Made by a program: the position numbers and the translations under genes. A stretch of DNA of 64,000 nucleotides from a virus, in IMG/VR virus record IMGVR_UViG_3300029957_000008, positions 27,977 to 91,976 of that record; one strand, given 5' to 3'. Every line of letters starts with the position of its first letter. Position 1 is the first letter of the stretch. Of this stretch, positions 3,766-50,549 are shown piece after piece. The notes beneath the pieces are model-generated. The model saw only the letters and a list, made by a program, of their open reading frames with translations, was not told the DNA's origin and ran no database searches.

Positions 3766-4080
3766 ATGAACGAGAAATTAAAATACTTGGATGGGGCCGA
3801 ACTGGCCCCCGTTAAGATAATACCCCTTTTGCTCAGTCTAGGGTTTAAACACACTGAGACACTAGCCATCCTACTCTGTCTATCAGAGTTGGATGAGGCA
3901 AACCACCTACGGGTGTTTATCTCCGAAATAGCCGATAGAATAAAAGTAACGACAAGGGTAGTTTACTATGCTCTCGATAAAGCAAAAGGATTTGGCCTCA
4001 TGAAGGAAGACGGTCGTTATTTTTTGGGGGATTTTATCACGGAGTTGGTTTCTATTCAAAAAACACAGGAGGAAAGATAA
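3766..4080 (+). CDS. winged-HTH DNA-binding protein
   Basis: ISEIADRIKVTTRVVYYALDKAKGFGLM HTH-wing pattern. Start moved to ATG 3766, downstream of the promoter. Confidence 0.7.
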   Translation: MNEKLKYLDGAELAPVKIIPLLLSLGFKHTETLAILLCLSELDEANHLRVFISEIADRIKVTTRVVYYALDKAKGFGLMKEDGRYFLGDFITELVSIQKTQEER

Positions 4081-4082
4081 AT

Positions 4083-5276
4083 ATGGATTTCGATAGGATG
4101 TACGATGAAATTGATGCGCTCTGGCCTAAGACACGACCCTATGTTCAGAGGGTGCAAGAGAGAAACGTAATCGAGAAGTTCGTGAAAGATGAGGACGCCT
4201 TCGCTCGCCTAAAGAGTGCAGTTGAGATCAAGGTCGAAGATTCCCCCAACAAGCTACCCCTACTTTTCTCTTTCATAGAAAAATTCTTTCGAGTTACCAA
4301 TAAACCCGGTGACACTACCCCGGAACCCCAGTCTGCGGTAGAACATAAGTCATCGGTCCAATTACCTATTCAGGACAATCAAGATGTCGAAAACATCTTC
4401 TCGACCATCTTCGAGTGTTGGCCAGACAACCTAGGTATCACAGAACAGCGCAGCAAAGCGCTGGCTGCGTTTTCAGTCGCTTGTAGGACCGAGACACCAG
4501 AGAACATCCAAAAGGCTTGCCAGGCTTATTCTGATGCGTTTAACGCAGGTGGTATGACCTACCCCCAATTCCTTAGGAACTTCCTCTCCGATCCGGACAC
4601 AGTTGAGGAATGGCTGGCCAAGTTTAATAACAAGACCGGGTTTAGCGACTTTGTTATGAAGCAGTTCGAGGCCGCCTATGCTTGGTATCCGGAATTCACA
4701 TCAAAGTCCACCGAAAAAACCAAGAAGGCCAGTTTGGTAATGTGGTACCGTTCTGTTCCCAAGGATGAGCGATTGGACTTCATGCTCTCGTGTAAGTTCT
4801 ATGCTGAGCATAGAAGGAGCATGGCGGCTGACTTTGATCAGCCCATGGACGAGGAAGTGACGTTTACTAAAAGCTTCAATACTTTCGTTGGAGAGTGGAA
4901 GTCTTTGGTGGACAAGCACCAGGCAGCATTTGTCAAGCGAGACTTTATTAGTAAAGACGTCAAGCTCCTGGCTCTGGAGAACGACATAGATCTTACTAAT
5001 CTGTATGGAGGCGGTATGTGGGAAGACTTCTTTTCTGAAAAAGCCTTTCCTTGCTTCCTCCTGCGATGTCCGACCATCAAAGACGCCATCAAGGCCATGC
5101 TGGAGAAGACCCGTGAGTACGTGGCGGATATGGTTGCCGGGGAGAACAAGAGTATCGTGAACAAGGAACTCGCCATCCGCCAGACAGGCGCCATGGACGT
5201 CGAAAAAGTGACTGAAGCAATTTTTAGTAAGATAGTCGAAACCAAGAGTATTGTACTGCCAAGGCCAAGGAGTTAG
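4083..5276 (+). CDS. replication initiator-like protein with repeated helical domains
   Basis: Repeated F/Y-x(2-4)-W/Y-P...K-A...F-x-x-F modules (FECWP...RSKALAAF...YPQFLRNFL; YAWYP...KKASLVMW...SFNTFV), typical of phage initiator C-terminal domains; next to the putative origin. Confidence 0.55.
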   Translation: MDFDRMYDEIDALWPKTRPYVQRVQERNVIEKFVKDEDAFARLKSAVEIKVEDSPNKLPLLFSFIEKFFRVTNKPGDTTPEPQSAVEHKSSVQLPIQDNQDVENIFSTIFECWPDNLGITEQRSKALAAFSVACRTETPENIQKACQAYSDAFNAGGMTYPQFLRNFLSDPDTVEEWLAKFNNKTGFSDFVMKQFEAAYAWYPEFTSKSTEKTKKASLVMWYRSVPKDERLDFMLSCKFYAEHRRSMAADFDQPMDEEVTFTKSFNTFVGEWKSLVDKHQAAFVKRDFISKDVKLLALENDIDLTNLYGGGMWEDFFSEKAFPCFLLRCPTIKDAIKAMLEKTREYVADMVAGENKSIVNKELAIRQTGAMDVEKVTEAIFSKIVETKSIVLPRPRS

Positions 5277-36590: not shown

Positions 36591-36665
36591 TGGTTCTCCG
36601 GGTGTGGATCGAACACACTTGAGCCGCTTATAAAGCGGCCATTTTAACCATTAAATTACCGGAGA
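36591..36665 (-). tRNA. tRNA-Ile(UAU)
   Basis: Acceptor TCTCCGG/CCGGAGA, anticodon arm GCCGC-TTTATAA-GCGGC, T arm GTGTG-TTCGATC-CACAC, encoded ACCA. Confidence 0.9.
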
Positions 36666-36670
36666 GTATT

Positions 36671-36765
36671 TGGTCGGGATGGAGGATTCGATACCTCAGT
36701 GATGACCATTGCTGAGTCCATCGCCAGCCCCCATGGCTGGTGCATTTAACTTCTGCCACATCCCA
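36671..36765 (-). tRNA. atypical tRNA-Pro(UGG)-like gene with a long variable arm
   Basis: Acceptor TGGGATG/CATCCCG + ACCA; anticodon arm CCAGC-CATGGGG-GCTGG; ~26-nt extra arm; T arm GAGG-TATCGAAT-CCTC. Confidence 0.7.
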
Positions 36766-36772
36766 AGACCGA

Positions 36773-45850: not shown

Positions 45851-46648
45851 TTACTCCATCGGCTCAATATAGGTTTCGCGAGCCAGAACCGTCTCAAAGG
45901 TAATTTCTTTCGTTTCTCCGTCAATGATCATTGCCGTCAACTTATTCCCATAGACCACACCTGTGTCAAGACCATATGTTCTGTTGACGACATGGATATC
46001 CGAGCGGTTTTCATGTCCATAGACGATCTTAATGTCGTCAGTGTAGACTGCAGACCAGTGAACCGACGTCTCAGGGTGGTGCCACTTGCCATCTTTGTAC
46101 CATGAGGCTGCACAGACCCACTTGTCACCTTTCCGTTCCACGAAGCGGTTGCAGACCAAACCCTTAAGCTCCTGCCTCAGGCCCACACCTGGAATCATTC
46201 CAGCGTGCATAAACTGGAAGCCATTCCACTGAATTACAGCGGGAAAGGTCGCAATGTACTCAAGGTCCAGTGAGTCTAGCTGTGCGTAGCTTCTAAGGAA
46301 GTTGTCGCTAACCCGCACTGGGTTCTTGCAGCCAGGATTCTCAAGCCGCTTCTCTTCGTGTTGGCGATACCGAAGCATTTTAAGATCATGGTTGCCCATA
46401 ATAATGTGCGTAGGAGTATCTAAAGAGCACGCGATCATGGCCGATACGGCCATATGCGAATCGGGTCCTCGATCTACAAGGTCTCCAAGCTGGATTACAA
46501 TGTCGTTAGGTGTAGGCTTTACTTTTTCAAGAAGTTCAATAAGCTCCTTGTAACACCCGTGAACGTCACCGATAGCAATAACTCGGTCGGGTGTATCGTT
46601 AAGGGTTTTGAGTAAGGGGTATTTGGAAAATGGTAGGATCGTCGTCAT
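45851..46648 (-). CDS. calcineurin-like phosphoesterase (PrpE/ApaH/lambda-phosphatase family)
   Basis: GDVHGC, GDLVDRGPDS, GNHD, HAG, YGH and LDTGVVYG. Confidence 0.9.
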   Translation of the reverse strand: MTTILPFSKYPLLKTLNDTPDRVIAIGDVHGCYKELIELLEKVKPTPNDIVIQLGDLVDRGPDSHMAVSAMIACSLDTPTHIIMGNHDLKMLRYRQHEEKRLENPGCKNPVRVSDNFLRSYAQLDSLDLEYIATFPAVIQWNGFQFMHAGMIPGVGLRQELKGLVCNRFVERKGDKWVCAASWYKDGKWHHPETSVHWSAVYTDDIKIVYGHENRSDIHVVNRTYGLDTGVVYGNKLTAMIIDGETKEITFETVLARETYIEPME

Positions 46649-47003
46649 GGAAGTTAGGATATTCCTCACTAAAGAAGCCGTCAAGATCGAAGAACGCCTT
46701 GTTATAGACTTGGTTGCACTTTGAATTTCCGTAGTACCGTTCATAACTGCGGATTCGTTCAACAATGGCCTTAACAACCTTCAGGTCTCCTACCCAGTAG
46801 AGGCCACATTGTCCGGGAGGGATGGACCGACCGTATCGCAAAGCTAAGATCTTGGAAATAGCTAGCTCACGCCCCTTCTTTCGAGAGCCGTTGTCGCTCT
46901 TTTGAGCAAGAGCCATTCCTAGGATGTAGTCTCCTTCTTCGGTTTTGGATGACGCAATAGTTAGGCCGATACGGCCGTTGGAATGGAAGTGCAGGATCTT
47001 CGT
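46599..47003 (-). CDS. hypothetical protein, probable ACG start
   Basis: AAGGAG-N7-ACG in frame gives (M)KILHFHSNGRIGLTIASS...GMALAQKSDNGSRKKGRELA. Confidence 0.55.
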   Translation of the reverse strand, partial: TKILHFHSNGRIGLTIASSKTEEGDYILGMALAQKSDNGSRKKGRELAISKILALRYGRSIPPGQCGLYWVGDLKVVKAIVERIRSYERYYGNSKCNQVYNKAFFDLDGFFSEEYPNFHDDDPTIFQIPLTQNP

Positions 47004-47014
47004 GTAATTTCTCC

Positions 47015-47227
47015 TTATGGTGTTGCGCAGTATGTAATTGCCGTTCCGTCATCTAGGACGTCGATTTGCCATCGTCCGTCGTCGCAGTAATAAGTGTTGT
47101 TGTCCCCACACCTGTCAAATCCAGATACCACACCTAGGGTCTCAGAGTCTATTAATTTGCTTTGTTCGGCCGGGTCCACAACCATTGGGTTCTTTCCGGC
47201 CAGGAAGGTCTTTAATGAGCTTTTCAC
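47015..47227 (-). CDS. microprotein paralogue D (KSSLKTFLAGKNP...DVLDDGTAITYC family)
   Basis: GTG start 1 nt after the stop of paralogue C; conserved termini. Confidence 0.8.
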   Translation of the reverse strand: MKSSLKTFLAGKNPMVVDPAEQSKLIDSETLGVVSGFDRCGDNNTYYCDDGRWQIDVLDDGTAITYCATP

Positions 47228-47228
47228 G

Positions 47229-47420
47229 TTAATCAGCACAGTAAGTAATTGCTGTGCCGTCATCAAGGACGTCGACATACCAATCGTCCTCTCCGAGTTC
47301 TTGAGTGCTGTCAGTGTATGGGCTGCCGTTAACAGCCGTTGCTAGGGTAATGGAGTTTCTTAATTTTAAAATATTAAGAGGGTTTTTCCCAGCCAGGAAC
47401 GTCTTCAATGAGCTTTTCAT
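47229..47420 (-). CDS. microprotein paralogue C
   Basis: TAATG-coupled to the kinase gene; conserved termini. Confidence 0.85.
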   Translation of the reverse strand: MKSSLKTFLAGKNPLNILKLRNSITLATAVNGSPYTDSTQELGEDDWYVDVLDDGTAITYCAD

Positions 47421-47938
47421 TATTTCACCACGTAATGTGTAATGTTTTCGGGTAGTTCGGTTTTGATCAGTCTGTTGTACATTTCGATTACCCTGTCTTG
47501 GGGTACTCCATGGATGTTTCTTGCAGCAGCAACAAATGGATTAGTAAGGAGAGTGACAGCAATTACGTCCAAATCCATTTCCTTGGCCCGGTTGATGTAC
47601 TGCTCCATTTCCTTCATTGTAGTGTTCGTGTTGTCTACGATTATATATAGCGGACGTTTGTCTCCGTGTAAAGAGGTAAAATACTCAAAGTTCTCATAGC
47701 AGGCCGCGTGGGCCTGGCCCAATAGGTGCTTGTTAAAAACGTAGTCTCCCGTTTCCTTTTCTACGAAGTAGTGGTCTGCAGACACAACCTCAAAAGGCGC
47801 ATGAGGAGACCCTAGATACTTCTCTAACAGGTCTACAAAATAACTCTTTCCCGCGCCGGGACAACCCCGAAGGAGAATTACGGCGCGGTGTGGGAGCTTG
47901 AACAGGACTTCTTCGGTTGTGGCTAAAATTGTACTCAT
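47420..47938 (-). CDS. P-loop polynucleotide-kinase-like protein (AAA_33/N4BP2-like)
   Basis: LRGCPGAGKS, SADHYF, IVDNTN and RNIHGVP. Confidence 0.85.
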   Translation of the reverse strand: MSTILATTEEVLFKLPHRAVILLRGCPGAGKSYFVDLLEKYLGSPHAPFEVVSADHYFVEKETGDYVFNKHLLGQAHAACYENFEYFTSLHGDKRPLYIIVDNTNTTMKEMEQYINRAKEMDLDVIAVTLLTNPFVAAARNIHGVPQDRVIEMYNRLIKTELPENITHYVVK

Positions 47939-47955
47939 CTAAATTTGAAACTCCT

Positions 47956-48165
47956 CTAGAAAATTAGAGAAACGCTGTAGGTGATAGCGACTCCGTCATC
48001 CAAAACGTCGGTAAACCAAAGACTTCCCGTTTCTCCTACTCCCGCAGCATTTCCCGTACCCCAAAAATCTACCGCTTCGTCTAGGCTCATTGCGTTCTTC
48101 AGTCTGGCCGTCTTTGGGTTGTAGCGGTTCTTGCCCTTGAGAAACGTCTTTAGTGAACTCTTCAT
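47956..48165 (-). CDS. microprotein paralogue B
   Basis: AAGGA RBS; conserved termini. Confidence 0.85.
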   Translation of the reverse strand: MKSSLKTFLKGKNRYNPKTARLKNAMSLDEAVDFWGTGNAAGVGETGSLWFTDVLDDGVAITYSVSLIF

Positions 48166-48180
48166 GTTAGTCCTTTATTG

Positions 48181-48387
48181 TTATTTATCAGGGCAGTAGG
48201 TAATAGCTGTTCCATCGTCTAGAACATCAAGACATTGGACGATTCCATTAGAAAACCACTGATCCTCAGGTTTGCTCCCTTTGAGCTTAAAATATGGCTG
48301 CTCATTGTTTGGAAGCCAGCCTTTTTTGTAGATAGTACGGAGAAATGGATTCTCCCCCGCCAGAAACGTCTTTAGTGAACTTTTCAT
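48181..48387 (-). CDS. microprotein paralogue A
   Basis: AGGAG RBS; first gene after the promoter; conserved termini. Confidence 0.85.
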   Translation of the reverse strand: MKSSLKTFLAGENPFLRTIYKKGWLPNNEQPYFKLKGSKPEDQWFSNGIVQCLDVLDDGTAITYCPDK

Positions 48388-48407: not shown

Positions 48408-48436
48408 ATATTAACGTAATTCCTACCCGTTGTCAA
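48408..48436 (-). promoter_or_regulatory. sigma70-type promoter for the microprotein/kinase/phosphoesterase operon
   Basis: TTGACA-N17-TAATAT. Confidence 0.75.
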
Positions 48437-48458: not shown

Positions 48459-50549
48459 ATGCTTCTGTTCCTGATAGCTAATGGTGACGGTTTAACTAAA
48501 AAACTGAACCAAGCCAAAGTTTTTAATAACGTCGAAGAGATCCGTAGAGTATCAGCAAGTATCTCAAAAGGCAACTCCCTTTTCGCTTCTTGGGCTCTAA
48601 GAGCCCTCGGTTCGACCATTGAAGAACAAGGTGACGAGATTTTAGTAGAATTGGATGCAGCACAGCTCTTAGAGCTGGAGAGCATCCGGAAGCAATACGT
48701 TACAGCCACAGAGTGCACGGTTAGTGTAGGTATTGGTAAGAAAGTATCAGAAGCCACTAGGGCACTCCTAGCAGCCAAGCTAAAGGGTGGAAATTGTTCA
48801 GTTTTTTACGATAAGGACGTTGAGAAAGAAATTCAAGAAGCCGAAGCTTCCGCCAAAGAAGACCGTTCAGAAATCGTACACCAGTACCTAGCCAAAGCCC
48901 AGAAAAACAATGCGGGCGGAGAAGGGGCGCACGTTACTAATATGGACGCTACGTCCCTAAATACGGTTATCTCCCCAGCCGCCCCGTTAACTCAGGCAGA
49001 TACCGACGAAGCTCTTAATAACAACGCCATCCCCGCTACTGGAGACGCCCAGGGTGGCCCAGAAGCTCTACAGCCCCAAGTCACCCCTACCCCTCAGATG
49101 GATCTTCCCCAGTTTGAGCAGAAGTTTAGAGAGCACGCAGACCAACATGAAGCCTCGGAAAAGGCAAAAAACCTAAGCGAATCAGAGGGTTACAACCAAA
49201 TTAAGCAGCAAGTAGCCGAAGCTCTATTAAACATTAAGTCTCAAATGGGAGTTATTTCTTCCCTGAGGACCCAAGCTCCAGACACCTACGAAGCCATCAT
49301 GGGCGTTGTTAGGGGCCTGATTATGCTCGGAAGAGAAATCACCAATACGGACGACAGGATCGAGAAGGCTGAGCTGTCAAAAGGCATCGCTTCGCCGATG
49401 GGTAATTTGAGGGGTGTAGGAACCGAAGCCGACATGGCATCTACCATCGGAATCGTTGGCTCAGATGCCCTAGACAAGACTTCCCTAGACCCTACAGACT
49501 TTGACCAAGAGCAGCTAGCCATTGGAATCCAGGTCGAGATCCAGGAACACGGTCTAGACGTAGAGGAAGCCAAGAAGCTGGTCATGGATCACCTGAAAGA
49601 GGATCCCGACTACTACAAGAAGGAAACCTTAGCTAAGACGGAATTTTTTTTTGACAGCGGCAACGAGATAAAGAAGCTGCAGTACGATGGTCCGGCCAAT
49701 ATGGCCGGAAATAATCAAAAGCACCTGTTTGTCAACCCAGTAGATAAGACAAGCTATGTCTATAGGGAGCTTGAATCCCCCCAGCAGGCTTTAGCGGCCG
49801 AATCGGCCAGTAGACTAGCCGAAGCTATCCTGCCCGTCCACTCCAACTATCCCGTCAGAGCACATAACCTAGTGGGCCATGTGGGTATTATGCAGCCAGT
49901 GGTCCAAGGCGCCCATGACTTACAGAACGTAAGCCCTCAAGAGCTAACCGTTACGGAACTAAACGACCTTCTGGGAGAGTTCGTTGTTGACTTTCTCATT
50001 GGTAACGCCTCCACGACCGGAAGAGACCTTTTAAGGACGGTTTCCGGCGATGTGGTTGGAATTGATAAGAAGGACTCCTACAAAGACTTTGATACTGTTG
50101 GGCCATACTACCAGGCGCTTCTAGAGTCCGTAAAGGGCGGAAGTCTGAAAGTGGATGTTGCCGCCCTAAACGGGGTGCTTCAAGTCGTCCAAGGAATCTC
50201 AGAAGACGAGTATCTAGACAATGTAGGTGAGTTTGCCCAGTCAGCCATGCCTCCAGATGGACACATTGAGTTCTGCAAGCAACTGCTAGCGCGCAAGAGG
50301 AACATCTCTTCTCTCTTCATGGACATGTTTAAGAACTCCTTGCAGAAGGGCGAGCGTCCAGAGTTTGGTAAGATGAGAGCCCACATTGACCTACCCGTTG
50401 GCAGCACTGTCTTTGGTAAGGTTAAAGTGAGGCACTGGGACGGTTTAGAAAGTTGGAAGTCAGTCAAGGCCGGCGCAATCCAAGGAATGGATCCTGGTAT
50501 GGCCGGTGAAGGACATCCCGTTTCGGCCAAGAACCCATCGGCTAAATAA
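48459..50549 (+). CDS. polyprotein: mCpol-like cyclase domain + helical domain + DUF5661-like + degenerate kinase domain
   Basis: LIANGDG...EEQGDEILV...TVSVGIG...ALLAAKLKG; FDQEQLAIGIQVEIQEH...MDHLKEDPDYY; VVDFLIGNAS...VVGID. Confidence 0.7.
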   Translation: MLLFLIANGDGLTKKLNQAKVFNNVEEIRRVSASISKGNSLFASWALRALGSTIEEQGDEILVELDAAQLLELESIRKQYVTATECTVSVGIGKKVSEATRALLAAKLKGGNCSVFYDKDVEKEIQEAEASAKEDRSEIVHQYLAKAQKNNAGGEGAHVTNMDATSLNTVISPAAPLTQADTDEALNNNAIPATGDAQGGPEALQPQVTPTPQMDLPQFEQKFREHADQHEASEKAKNLSESEGYNQIKQQVAEALLNIKSQMGVISSLRTQAPDTYEAIMGVVRGLIMLGREITNTDDRIEKAELSKGIASPMGNLRGVGTEADMASTIGIVGSDALDKTSLDPTDFDQEQLAIGIQVEIQEHGLDVEEAKKLVMDHLKEDPDYYKKETLAKTEFFFDSGNEIKKLQYDGPANMAGNNQKHLFVNPVDKTSYVYRELESPQQALAAESASRLAEAILPVHSNYPVRAHNLVGHVGIMQPVVQGAHDLQNVSPQELTVTELNDLLGEFVVDFLIGNASTTGRDLLRTVSGDVVGIDKKDSYKDFDTVGPYYQALLESVKGGSLKVDVAALNGVLQVVQGISEDEYLDNVGEFAQSAMPPDGHIEFCKQLLARKRNISSLFMDMFKNSLQKGERPEFGKMRAHIDLPVGSTVFGKVKVRHWDGLESWKSVKAGAIQGMDPGMAGEGHPVSAKNPSAK

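Follow-up and report, generated by a model that had tools for sequence, protein, structure and literature searches.

Why would a phage genome keep several small genes side by side whose two ends are nearly the same and whose middles are so different? This question is raised by a 64,000-nucleotide stretch of viral DNA—called the window in the following—which forms the 3′ 64 kb of the 91,976-bp IMG/VR viral record IMGVR_UViG_3300029957_000008 (CheckV completeness 56%) and bears an array of four such genes, copies A–D. Here, we compare the encoded miniproteins with their relatives, whereby the window record and L-numbered contigs (e.g., L015) denote the compared loci and P-numbered proteins (e.g., P0013) the family members. 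The constant ends are maintained as protein sequence, and centres have been exchanged between related phages. The reading that we prefer, with a probability of roughly 0.45, is that of a small, early-expressed binder with a constant core and exchangeable specificity loops, which would serve host takeover or counter-defence.

Four small genes with shared ends

An initial annotation, made from the sequence of the window, had described four small open reading frames (ORFs) of one family at this locus. Four minus-strand ORFs of 63–70 amino acids are indeed present:

48181..48387, minus strand: copy A, 68 amino acids; ORF and translation, profile E-value 4e-20, AGGAG 7 nt upstream of the ATG
47956..48165, minus strand: copy B, 69 amino acids; ORF, alignment and profile, C end reading DVLDDGVAITYS
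47229..47420, minus strand: copy C, 63 amino acids; ORF, ATG overlapping the stop codon of a kinase gene
47015..47227, minus strand: copy D, 70 amino acids; GTG start one base past the stop of copy C

Shine–Dalgarno-like sequences precede copies A and B. The GTG start of copy D yields the N terminus of the family, M-K-S-S-L, and a longer ATG ORF from 47278 is unlikely to mark the true start of this copy.

A four-way alignment shows S3–L9, G11, N13, and D-V-L-D-D-G-x-A-I-T-Y to be invariant, while the overall identity among the copies is 42–58%. The alignment also contains the loose [KR]L-x-[ND]-[SA]-x-[TS]-L motif of the initial annotation, as well as the Trp that it had noted before DVL in three copies, which lies at position −3 from DVL in B, C, and D. 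The centre of copy A is atypical in that its LKGS motif is displaced toward the C end. A profile search of the entire 92-kb record finds exactly these four copies, with E-values of 1e-9 to 2e-40. Since the profile retrieves only these four within the record and more than 100 relatives elsewhere, the likeness among the copies is far beyond chance.

Constant ends and diverse centres across the family

Searched with the profile, 5.8 billion proteins yielded at least 114 clusters at 90% identity (E ≤ 0.01), all of them 53–112 amino acids long and every one unnamed or annotated as "hypothetical"; an exhaustive HMMER scan of 1.84 billion representatives gave 96 representatives at 50% identity. So far, the family is confined to uncultured viruses and viral-looking metagenome contigs. 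Among 50,697 deposited phage genomes, no match was found at the DNA or the protein level, a degenerate DNA pattern for the C-end motif retrieved from IMG/VR only three contigs, all of which had been found before, and a literature search with generic terms brought up nothing relevant. The initial annotation could not place the family, and it finds no home in the databases either: copies A–D have no Pfam or PHROG match at E ≤ 0.1, when 119 members were scanned singly, any Pfam family matched at most one and any NCBIfam family at most two of them, and there is neither a PDB sequence match nor a convincing fold match.

The family consensus consists of M-K-S-S-L-K-T-F-L-A-G-K-N-P, a variable stretch, L-K-G-S-x-x-L, a second variable stretch, and W-x-I-D-V-L-D-D-G-T-A-I-T-Y-C. 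The constant ends are KSSLKTFL-G-N on the N-terminal side and DVLDDGTAITYC on the C-terminal side, and their columns are conserved to 81–99% among the 119 members. For the 23 end codons of copies A–D, the proportion of differing synonymous sites (pS) is 0.78, i.e., saturated, and that of nonsynonymous sites (pN) is 0.08; for 31 distinct copies with available DNA, the values are 0.84 and 0.12. Invariant end residues are spelled by 2–7 different codons, which together with the saturated pS places the conservation at the protein level. The earlier statements that the ends differ mostly at synonymous positions, and that selection acts on the protein rather than on a DNA repeat, thus both hold. The ends are evidently under strong purifying selection, and the four copies evidently are coding genes under selection.

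The centre between the ends spans 35–50 residues. Its median pairwise identity is 0.20 versus 0.15 for shuffled centres, and 114 centres fall into 95 clusters at 50% identity. Cys occurs in 81 of the 114, and most members are acidic (median isoelectric point 4.7). The initial annotation had the centres "barely align". They are very diverse, but the wording is too strong: hydrophobic anchors are kept across the 119 members, namely two Leu (87% and 82%), a Phe (50%), and a Trp (80%).

Several database matches to the C-end motif were rejected. The sole match in 185,579 species genomes, a Maribacter repeat lipoprotein, shares only "LDDGTAITY" and was dismissed as a chance motif. The long HMMER matches P0115 (cadherin-like repeats), P0129, and P0130 (repeated "VDVLDDGNCG") are motif coincidences with about 10 residues in common, and matches to framework 3 of the antibody heavy-chain variable domain (VH) at E 0.01 were rejected as a coincidence of a local motif. 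The motif DVLDDGTAITYC is similar enough to immunoglobulin-like E–F hairpins, such as "EDTAVYYC" of antibody VH and the cadherin-like "ATDPDGTAVTYS", to produce profile matches. However, only about 12 residues are alike, and repeats amplify the effect (P0115 has 18 such stretches, and the Maribacter repeat protein is comparable); we judge the likeness to be a convergent local motif rather than homology.

Two unusual forms of the gene were observed. P0120 is a 112-amino acid variant that occupies the first array slots in near-identical phages (L015 181–528 and L016 613–960); it is extended by about 28 residues at its N end and by about 33 at its C end, and its N motif is degenerate (SSLETFLRGEN). 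In L032 (1286–1541) and likewise in L033 and L034, a frameshift directly behind KTFLAGK divides a family member into two halves in overlapping frames. The three contigs come from related metagenome samples, one from each of three, and the split may stem from a pseudogene, from a slippery run, or from an assembly error common to all of them.

Exchange of centres between related phages

The number of copies varies from one to at least five per phage, which agrees with the initial annotation. Five other viral records, themselves 12–89% complete, hold 1, 1, 1, 2, and 2 copies, the pairs being dispersed; one of the single-copy records is 168 kb long and 89% complete. Metagenome contigs bear tandem runs of two (L017, L018), three (L029, L030), or two plus one copies (L026), and at least five are found on L015, a 1.8-kb contig of a phage nearly identical to that of the window.

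The comparison of L015 with the window shows where these phages differ. Throughout the kinase gene, every 30-nt bin is identical at 27–30 of 30 positions, and so is nearly all of copy D; overall, the kinase and D match at 97–100%. Within slot C, the identity falls to 8–17 of 30 in the centre and is back at 28–30 of 30 in either constant end, and a similar drop marks the centre of B. Synonymous divergence (dS) amounts to 0.105 for the kinase and reaches 0.72 for the centre of C, where synonymous sites are saturated as well, and 0.52 for that of B. Fast evolution by point mutation raises nonsynonymous divergence (dN) and not dS. The high dS of the centres next to low values in the flanks therefore assigns to the centres a much deeper ancestry and points to their import by recombination. 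Two further contigs also differ from the window at the array. In L023, an identity of 93.6% extends from the divergent mCpol-like gene across the intergenic region to nt 38 of copy A, after which all similarity is lost until the C-end motif; L016 is 97% identical upstream and carries an extra family member inserted between the promoter-like site and a different A-slot variant. These data indicate that centres are replaced by recombinational cassette exchange with breakpoints in the constant ends, and not by hypermutation. The earlier idea that the ends could allow loop swapping by recombination fits with these observations, as the constant ends coincide with the breakpoints between near-identical phages. 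Hypermutation by a diversity-generating retroelement was considered and rejected from the sequences of the centres, no search aimed at a template repeat or a reverse transcriptase nearby having been made: the centres differ in length, at all base types, and with insertions and deletions, and not by fixed-length changes at template adenines.

Copy D is nearly identical in L014 and, by the comparison in 30-nt bins, in L015, and the nearest relatives of copy B lie elsewhere (P0013, 87%; P0022, 76%). More generally, each paralogue of the window is closer to copies of other phages (C 81%, B 87%) than to its neighbours in the array (38–57%), which makes the array a set of old allelic lineages that were re-assorted, rather than a recent local amplification. 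Among the four copies, the synonymous sites of the ends are saturated, and these ends are hence poor substrates for exchange within a genome; the documented exchanges are those between related phages.

Do the centres matter at all? The main alternative, possible if doubtful, is that the ends carry the whole function—as one site for a single conserved partner or a small ligand, for instance a nucleotide or a host or phage hub protein—with the centre as a connector that passively drifts or is swapped, and the copies as dosage or neutral duplicates. The conserved residues are unusually polar (K2, S3, S4, K6, T7, N13, D, D, D, G, T, T, and Y at 81–99%), which is typical of a ligand or partner site; most of the other, partly incomplete viral records searched yielded a single copy; the phage is rich in nucleotide-signalling enzymes; and the exchanged centres, with dN/dS of about 0.3 (two pairs), give no sign of positive selection. 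On the other hand, the same ratio and the retained hydrophobic anchors mark the centres as constrained rather than neutral, and hence as not freely variable. Moreover, the four paralogues represent old, distinct lineages with their own orthologues elsewhere that are kept side by side, and near-identical phages differ specifically in the centres that they carry, which would be hard to explain if centres were irrelevant.

A compact predicted fold

AlphaFold2 models of copies A and C were built with an alignment of 119 sequences. Copy A is predicted as one helix and five strands with a predicted local distance difference test score (pLDDT) of 87.1 and a predicted template modelling score (pTM) of 0.69; for copy C, the values are 85.6 and 0.70. 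Both models show a short N-terminal helix at residues 5–9 and a C-terminal hairpin formed from DVL/DDG/TAITY, and both are least confident in part of the centre. The small scaffold with variable loops proposed in the initial annotation is in line with this compact fold, whose least confident stretch lies within the variable centre.

Searches of the PDB with both models returned nothing above noise. With VIA-align (48,161 chains), the best Z is 2.9 for copy A (39 residues aligned, root-mean-square deviation 2.4) and 2.5 for copy C (40 residues aligned, root-mean-square deviation 3.1); with Foldseek, the best E-values against the PDB are 0.19 and 1.0, respectively. The top rows at this noise level comprise SH3, Tudor, Sm-like, Cren7/Sso7d, and WYL-containing chains. 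Against BFVD, the model of copy C matched nothing above noise except one uncharacterised member of the same family. In the ESM Atlas, the nearest clusters are WD40-type fragments for copy A (feature score 0.86) and precursors of ribosomally synthesised and post-translationally modified peptides (RiPPs) for copy C (0.81–0.85); these leads were given little weight, as the two copies disagree and all scores are below 0.9. On the basis of the models, we consider the miniproteins a previously undescribed family of small folded proteins of about 65 amino acids, whose predicted fold is likewise undescribed.

The RiPP clusters nevertheless recall a further explanation, in which a hypervariable core would be flanked by the ends as recognition sequences, one serving as leader and one as follower. 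The constant–variable–constant layout and the multiple copies do resemble the cyanobactin, prochlorosin, and MSDIN precursor families, the majority of centres contain the Cys noted above, and the L006 copy has a radical-SAM gene two genes away. Yet the models predict a confident globular fold with conserved hydrophobic anchors, and the 35–50-residue "core" would be long for a RiPP. Clustering of neighbours at 27 loci revealed no recurrent maturase, protease, or exporter beside family members, TIGR04149 is matched by none of the 119 members, and one member matches another NCBIfam RiPP model at E 0.14. As the language-model lead for copy C is not shared by copy A and hence not robust, we regard this explanation as very improbable.

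Genomic setting of the array

The array is surrounded by the following features of the window:

48408..48436, minus strand: sigma-70-like promoter match, TTGACA, 17 nt, TAATAT; upstream of copy A in a 71-bp divergent intergenic region
47420..47938, minus strand: P-loop kinase of the polynucleotide-kinase type (AAA_33), 172 amino acids; between copies B and C, PF13671 E 9e-10
46599..46916, minus strand: orf105, no assigned function; downstream neighbour conserved within the phage lineage of the window
45851..46777, minus strand: calcineurin-like metallophosphoesterase (NinI/lambda-phosphatase type); PF00149 E 2e-19, phrog_246 E 6e-27

From ORFs and domain matches, the order A, B, PNK (polynucleotide kinase)-like kinase, C, D, unknown, phosphoesterase is as first described. 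The metallophosphoesterase ORF overlaps orf105, and its start codon is therefore uncertain. A host sigma-70 transcript had also been proposed. The TTGACA-17-TAATAT match upstream of copy A is there, and the intergenic region that holds it is 97% conserved in L016; however, the site is a consensus match only, and shuffled versions of the region are expected to yield as many such sites as the region itself.

The record encodes head and tail genes of a tailed phage and two tRNAs. The array sits in a minus-strand block, divergent from a plus-strand gene for a 696-amino acid protein, and the structural genes lie on the strand opposite to the array. This arrangement bears on the possibility that the miniproteins are packaged in the virion like the internal proteins of T4, with the constant N end as a capsid-targeting sequence, and are injected with the DNA to meet host defences. 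A constant N segment of about 13 residues on small polymorphic proteins of a hyperplastic locus does recall the T-even ip locus. Such a targeting leader would, however, leave the equally conserved C end unexplained; in addition, the genes run opposite in strand to the structural genes behind an early-type promoter match, the same motif occurs in phages with different surroundings, and no protease-site pattern is apparent by eye. We consider packaging quite unlikely.

The two tRNA genes adjoin each other (window 36591–36766, minus strand) and were called as tRNA-Ile(TAT) and an unusually long, 95-nt tRNA-Pro(TGG).

The kinase, the phosphoesterase, and other neighbours

Besides PF13671, the kinase matches phrog_2071 (E 1e-25) and, at the profile level, PSTK (6.5e-11), the kinase domain of Clostridium thermocellum Pnkp (2.8e-9), and T4 PNK (3e-9). 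Among 67 homologues, G28, G30, K31, D55, and R140 are invariant or nearly so, corresponding to the P-loop, the catalytic Asp, and the lid Arg. By these sequence features, this 172-amino acid neighbour classes with polynucleotide 5′-kinases, which is a predicted substrate class only. In the Pnkp-like phrog_8238, residues 2–150 match the kinase and residues 168–380 the metallophosphoesterase; the two genes might hence be regarded as resembling a split Pnkp-type end-healing pair that is interrupted by C, D, and orf105.

The initial annotation had tied the miniproteins to this kinase. The association holds in the lineage of the window (window, L005, L007, L014, and L015; five of about 25 loci) and is not a property of the family as a whole. 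Within this lineage, orf105—which has no Pfam or PHROG match—and the gene for the 696-amino acid protein are syntenic as well, and orf105 homologues follow the miniprotein in L005, L007, and L014. At other loci, neighbours comprise small unknown ORFs, endonuclease VII, NADAR, and a SLOG domain, together with one instance each of a radical-SAM gene (L006) and an S8 peptidase (L037); ribonucleotide-reductase genes also seem to be among them, according to our own reading of translations rather than a scan. Given these varied surroundings, the family is a general resident of early and accessory regions and not a fixed partner of the kinase.

Could the miniproteins nonetheless be accessory subunits, regulators, or substrates of the end-healing module, for instance adaptors that direct it to different RNAs? 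The overlap between the ATG of copy C and the kinase stop suggests translational coupling, start/stop overlap or near-abutment with the kinase recurs in L005 and L007, and L014 and L015, too, have the kinase next to copies. The two ends contain invariant Ser, Thr, and Tyr, and the kinase and phosphoesterase do resemble a split Pnkp. At about 20 other loci, however, the neighbours are unrelated and no kinase homologue is found in the fetched DNA (up to 5–6 kb on each side, with many contigs of only 1–8 kb). Furthermore, a search for an RNA ligase found none in the 92-kb record, which is 56% complete, with the control for one of the two families searched giving no match either. An accessory role of this kind is thus considered unlikely.

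Two observations concern the other side of the array. The 696-amino acid protein (window 48459–50549, plus strand) combines an N-terminal minimal CRISPR polymerase domain (mCpol; PF18182, E 2e-11) with a DUF5661 segment; it shares 46–48% identity with its counterparts in L005 and L007, its DNA is about 94–97% identical in L016 and L023, and within the lineage of the window the mCpol-like gene always lies beside the miniprotein locus. In L005, the interval between this gene and the kinase (4055–4480)—the slots of A and B in the window—is occupied by a 148-amino acid ORF and a long simple repeat of the trinucleotide type, which reads as poly-Q, poly-A, or poly-L depending on the frame.

A proposed role for the miniproteins

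How might such a protein work as an early-expressed binder? The two constant ends would pack with the few hydrophobic anchors of the centre into a common core and, with K, S, S, K, T and D, D, G, T, T, Y, would form a common polar surface for binding one shared partner or ligand. Each paralogue would then owe its own specificity to its variable strands and loops. The array's early-type position among nucleotide-signalling and RNA-end-healing genes is the reason for proposing a repertoire of small binders for takeover or counter-defence. In the lineage of the window, the miniproteins may be co-translated with the PNK-like kinase, without the family depending on it. The anti-defence or host-inhibitor role that was already proposed initially remains a best guess from genomic context.

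A number of points weigh against the binder. No sequence or structural relative points to binding, with the best fold matches at Z 2.5–2.9, and the dN/dS of about 0.3 in the centres reflects constraint rather than the positive selection of an arms race, although it derives from two pairs only. The centre could be a tolerant region around a function that is carried wholly by the constant ends. The label "anti-defence", finally, amounts to guilt by association in poorly annotated accessory regions.

A more far-reaching version sees the family as a system of framework plus exchangeable cassette, and we put it forward tentatively and with considerable doubt. Here, the ends would double as recombination landmarks, and some 100 or more types of centres would move between phages and array slots, giving each phage a small set of binders that can be re-assorted to meet variable host targets. 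The copies might even join one another, via their constant ends, into a hetero-oligomer.

New factors for anti-defence and host takeover come mainly from small early phage proteins, most of which belong to no recognisable family. The present family offers three handles: two near-invariant motifs that ease its recovery from metagenomes, about 100 or more natural variants of the centre on one predicted scaffold, and an evident exchange of centres between otherwise identical phages. If target specificity resides in the centres, the family would be both a compact scaffold for binders, made by nature, and a record from which phage–host conflict in peat and wetland communities can be read. If it does not, the invariant composite surface should lead to a single important partner or ligand.

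Comparison with known systems

With respect to structure, SH3, Tudor, and Sm-like domains and single blades of the WD40 type come closest, as copy A is likewise predicted to be an all-β meander after a short helix. This likeness is only at noise level, however (Z ≤ 2.9, Foldseek E ≥ 0.19), and is not accompanied by a match to any sequence family.

RiPP precursor families (cyanobactin PatE, prochlorosins, TIGR04149) share with the miniproteins short multicopy genes and constant flanks around a variable middle, and copy C lies in their weak language-model proximity. They differ in that the miniproteins bear a predicted folded domain, have no associated maturases, and are not matched by the respective models.

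The internal proteins IPI, IPII, and IPIII of T-even phages are small and polymorphic and are encoded in a hyperplastic ip locus, whose content varies between close relatives; they bear a short constant terminal segment, and IPI* is an anti-restriction factor. The miniprotein array is alike in its small polymorphic proteins, in their constant terminal segment, and in a locus content that differs between near relatives. Unlike in the ip locus, the C end of the miniproteins is invariant too, the genes lie behind an early-type promoter match on the strand opposite to the head genes, and no sequence similarity was found.

The adhesin gp38 of T4-like phages is a virion protein of about 260 amino acids, in which conserved glycine-rich motifs flank several hypervariable segments; its constant segments are thought to enable the recombination by which phages exchange the specificity-determining ones. 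The miniproteins share this mosaic of constant and variable segments, whereas they comprise only 65 amino acids with one variable block, are non-structural, and have no homology to gp38. The family and its predicted fold are undescribed, while the principle by which constant segments frame exchangeable variable ones seems, by analogy with the T-even ip locus and the gp38 mosaics, to have precedents in kind.

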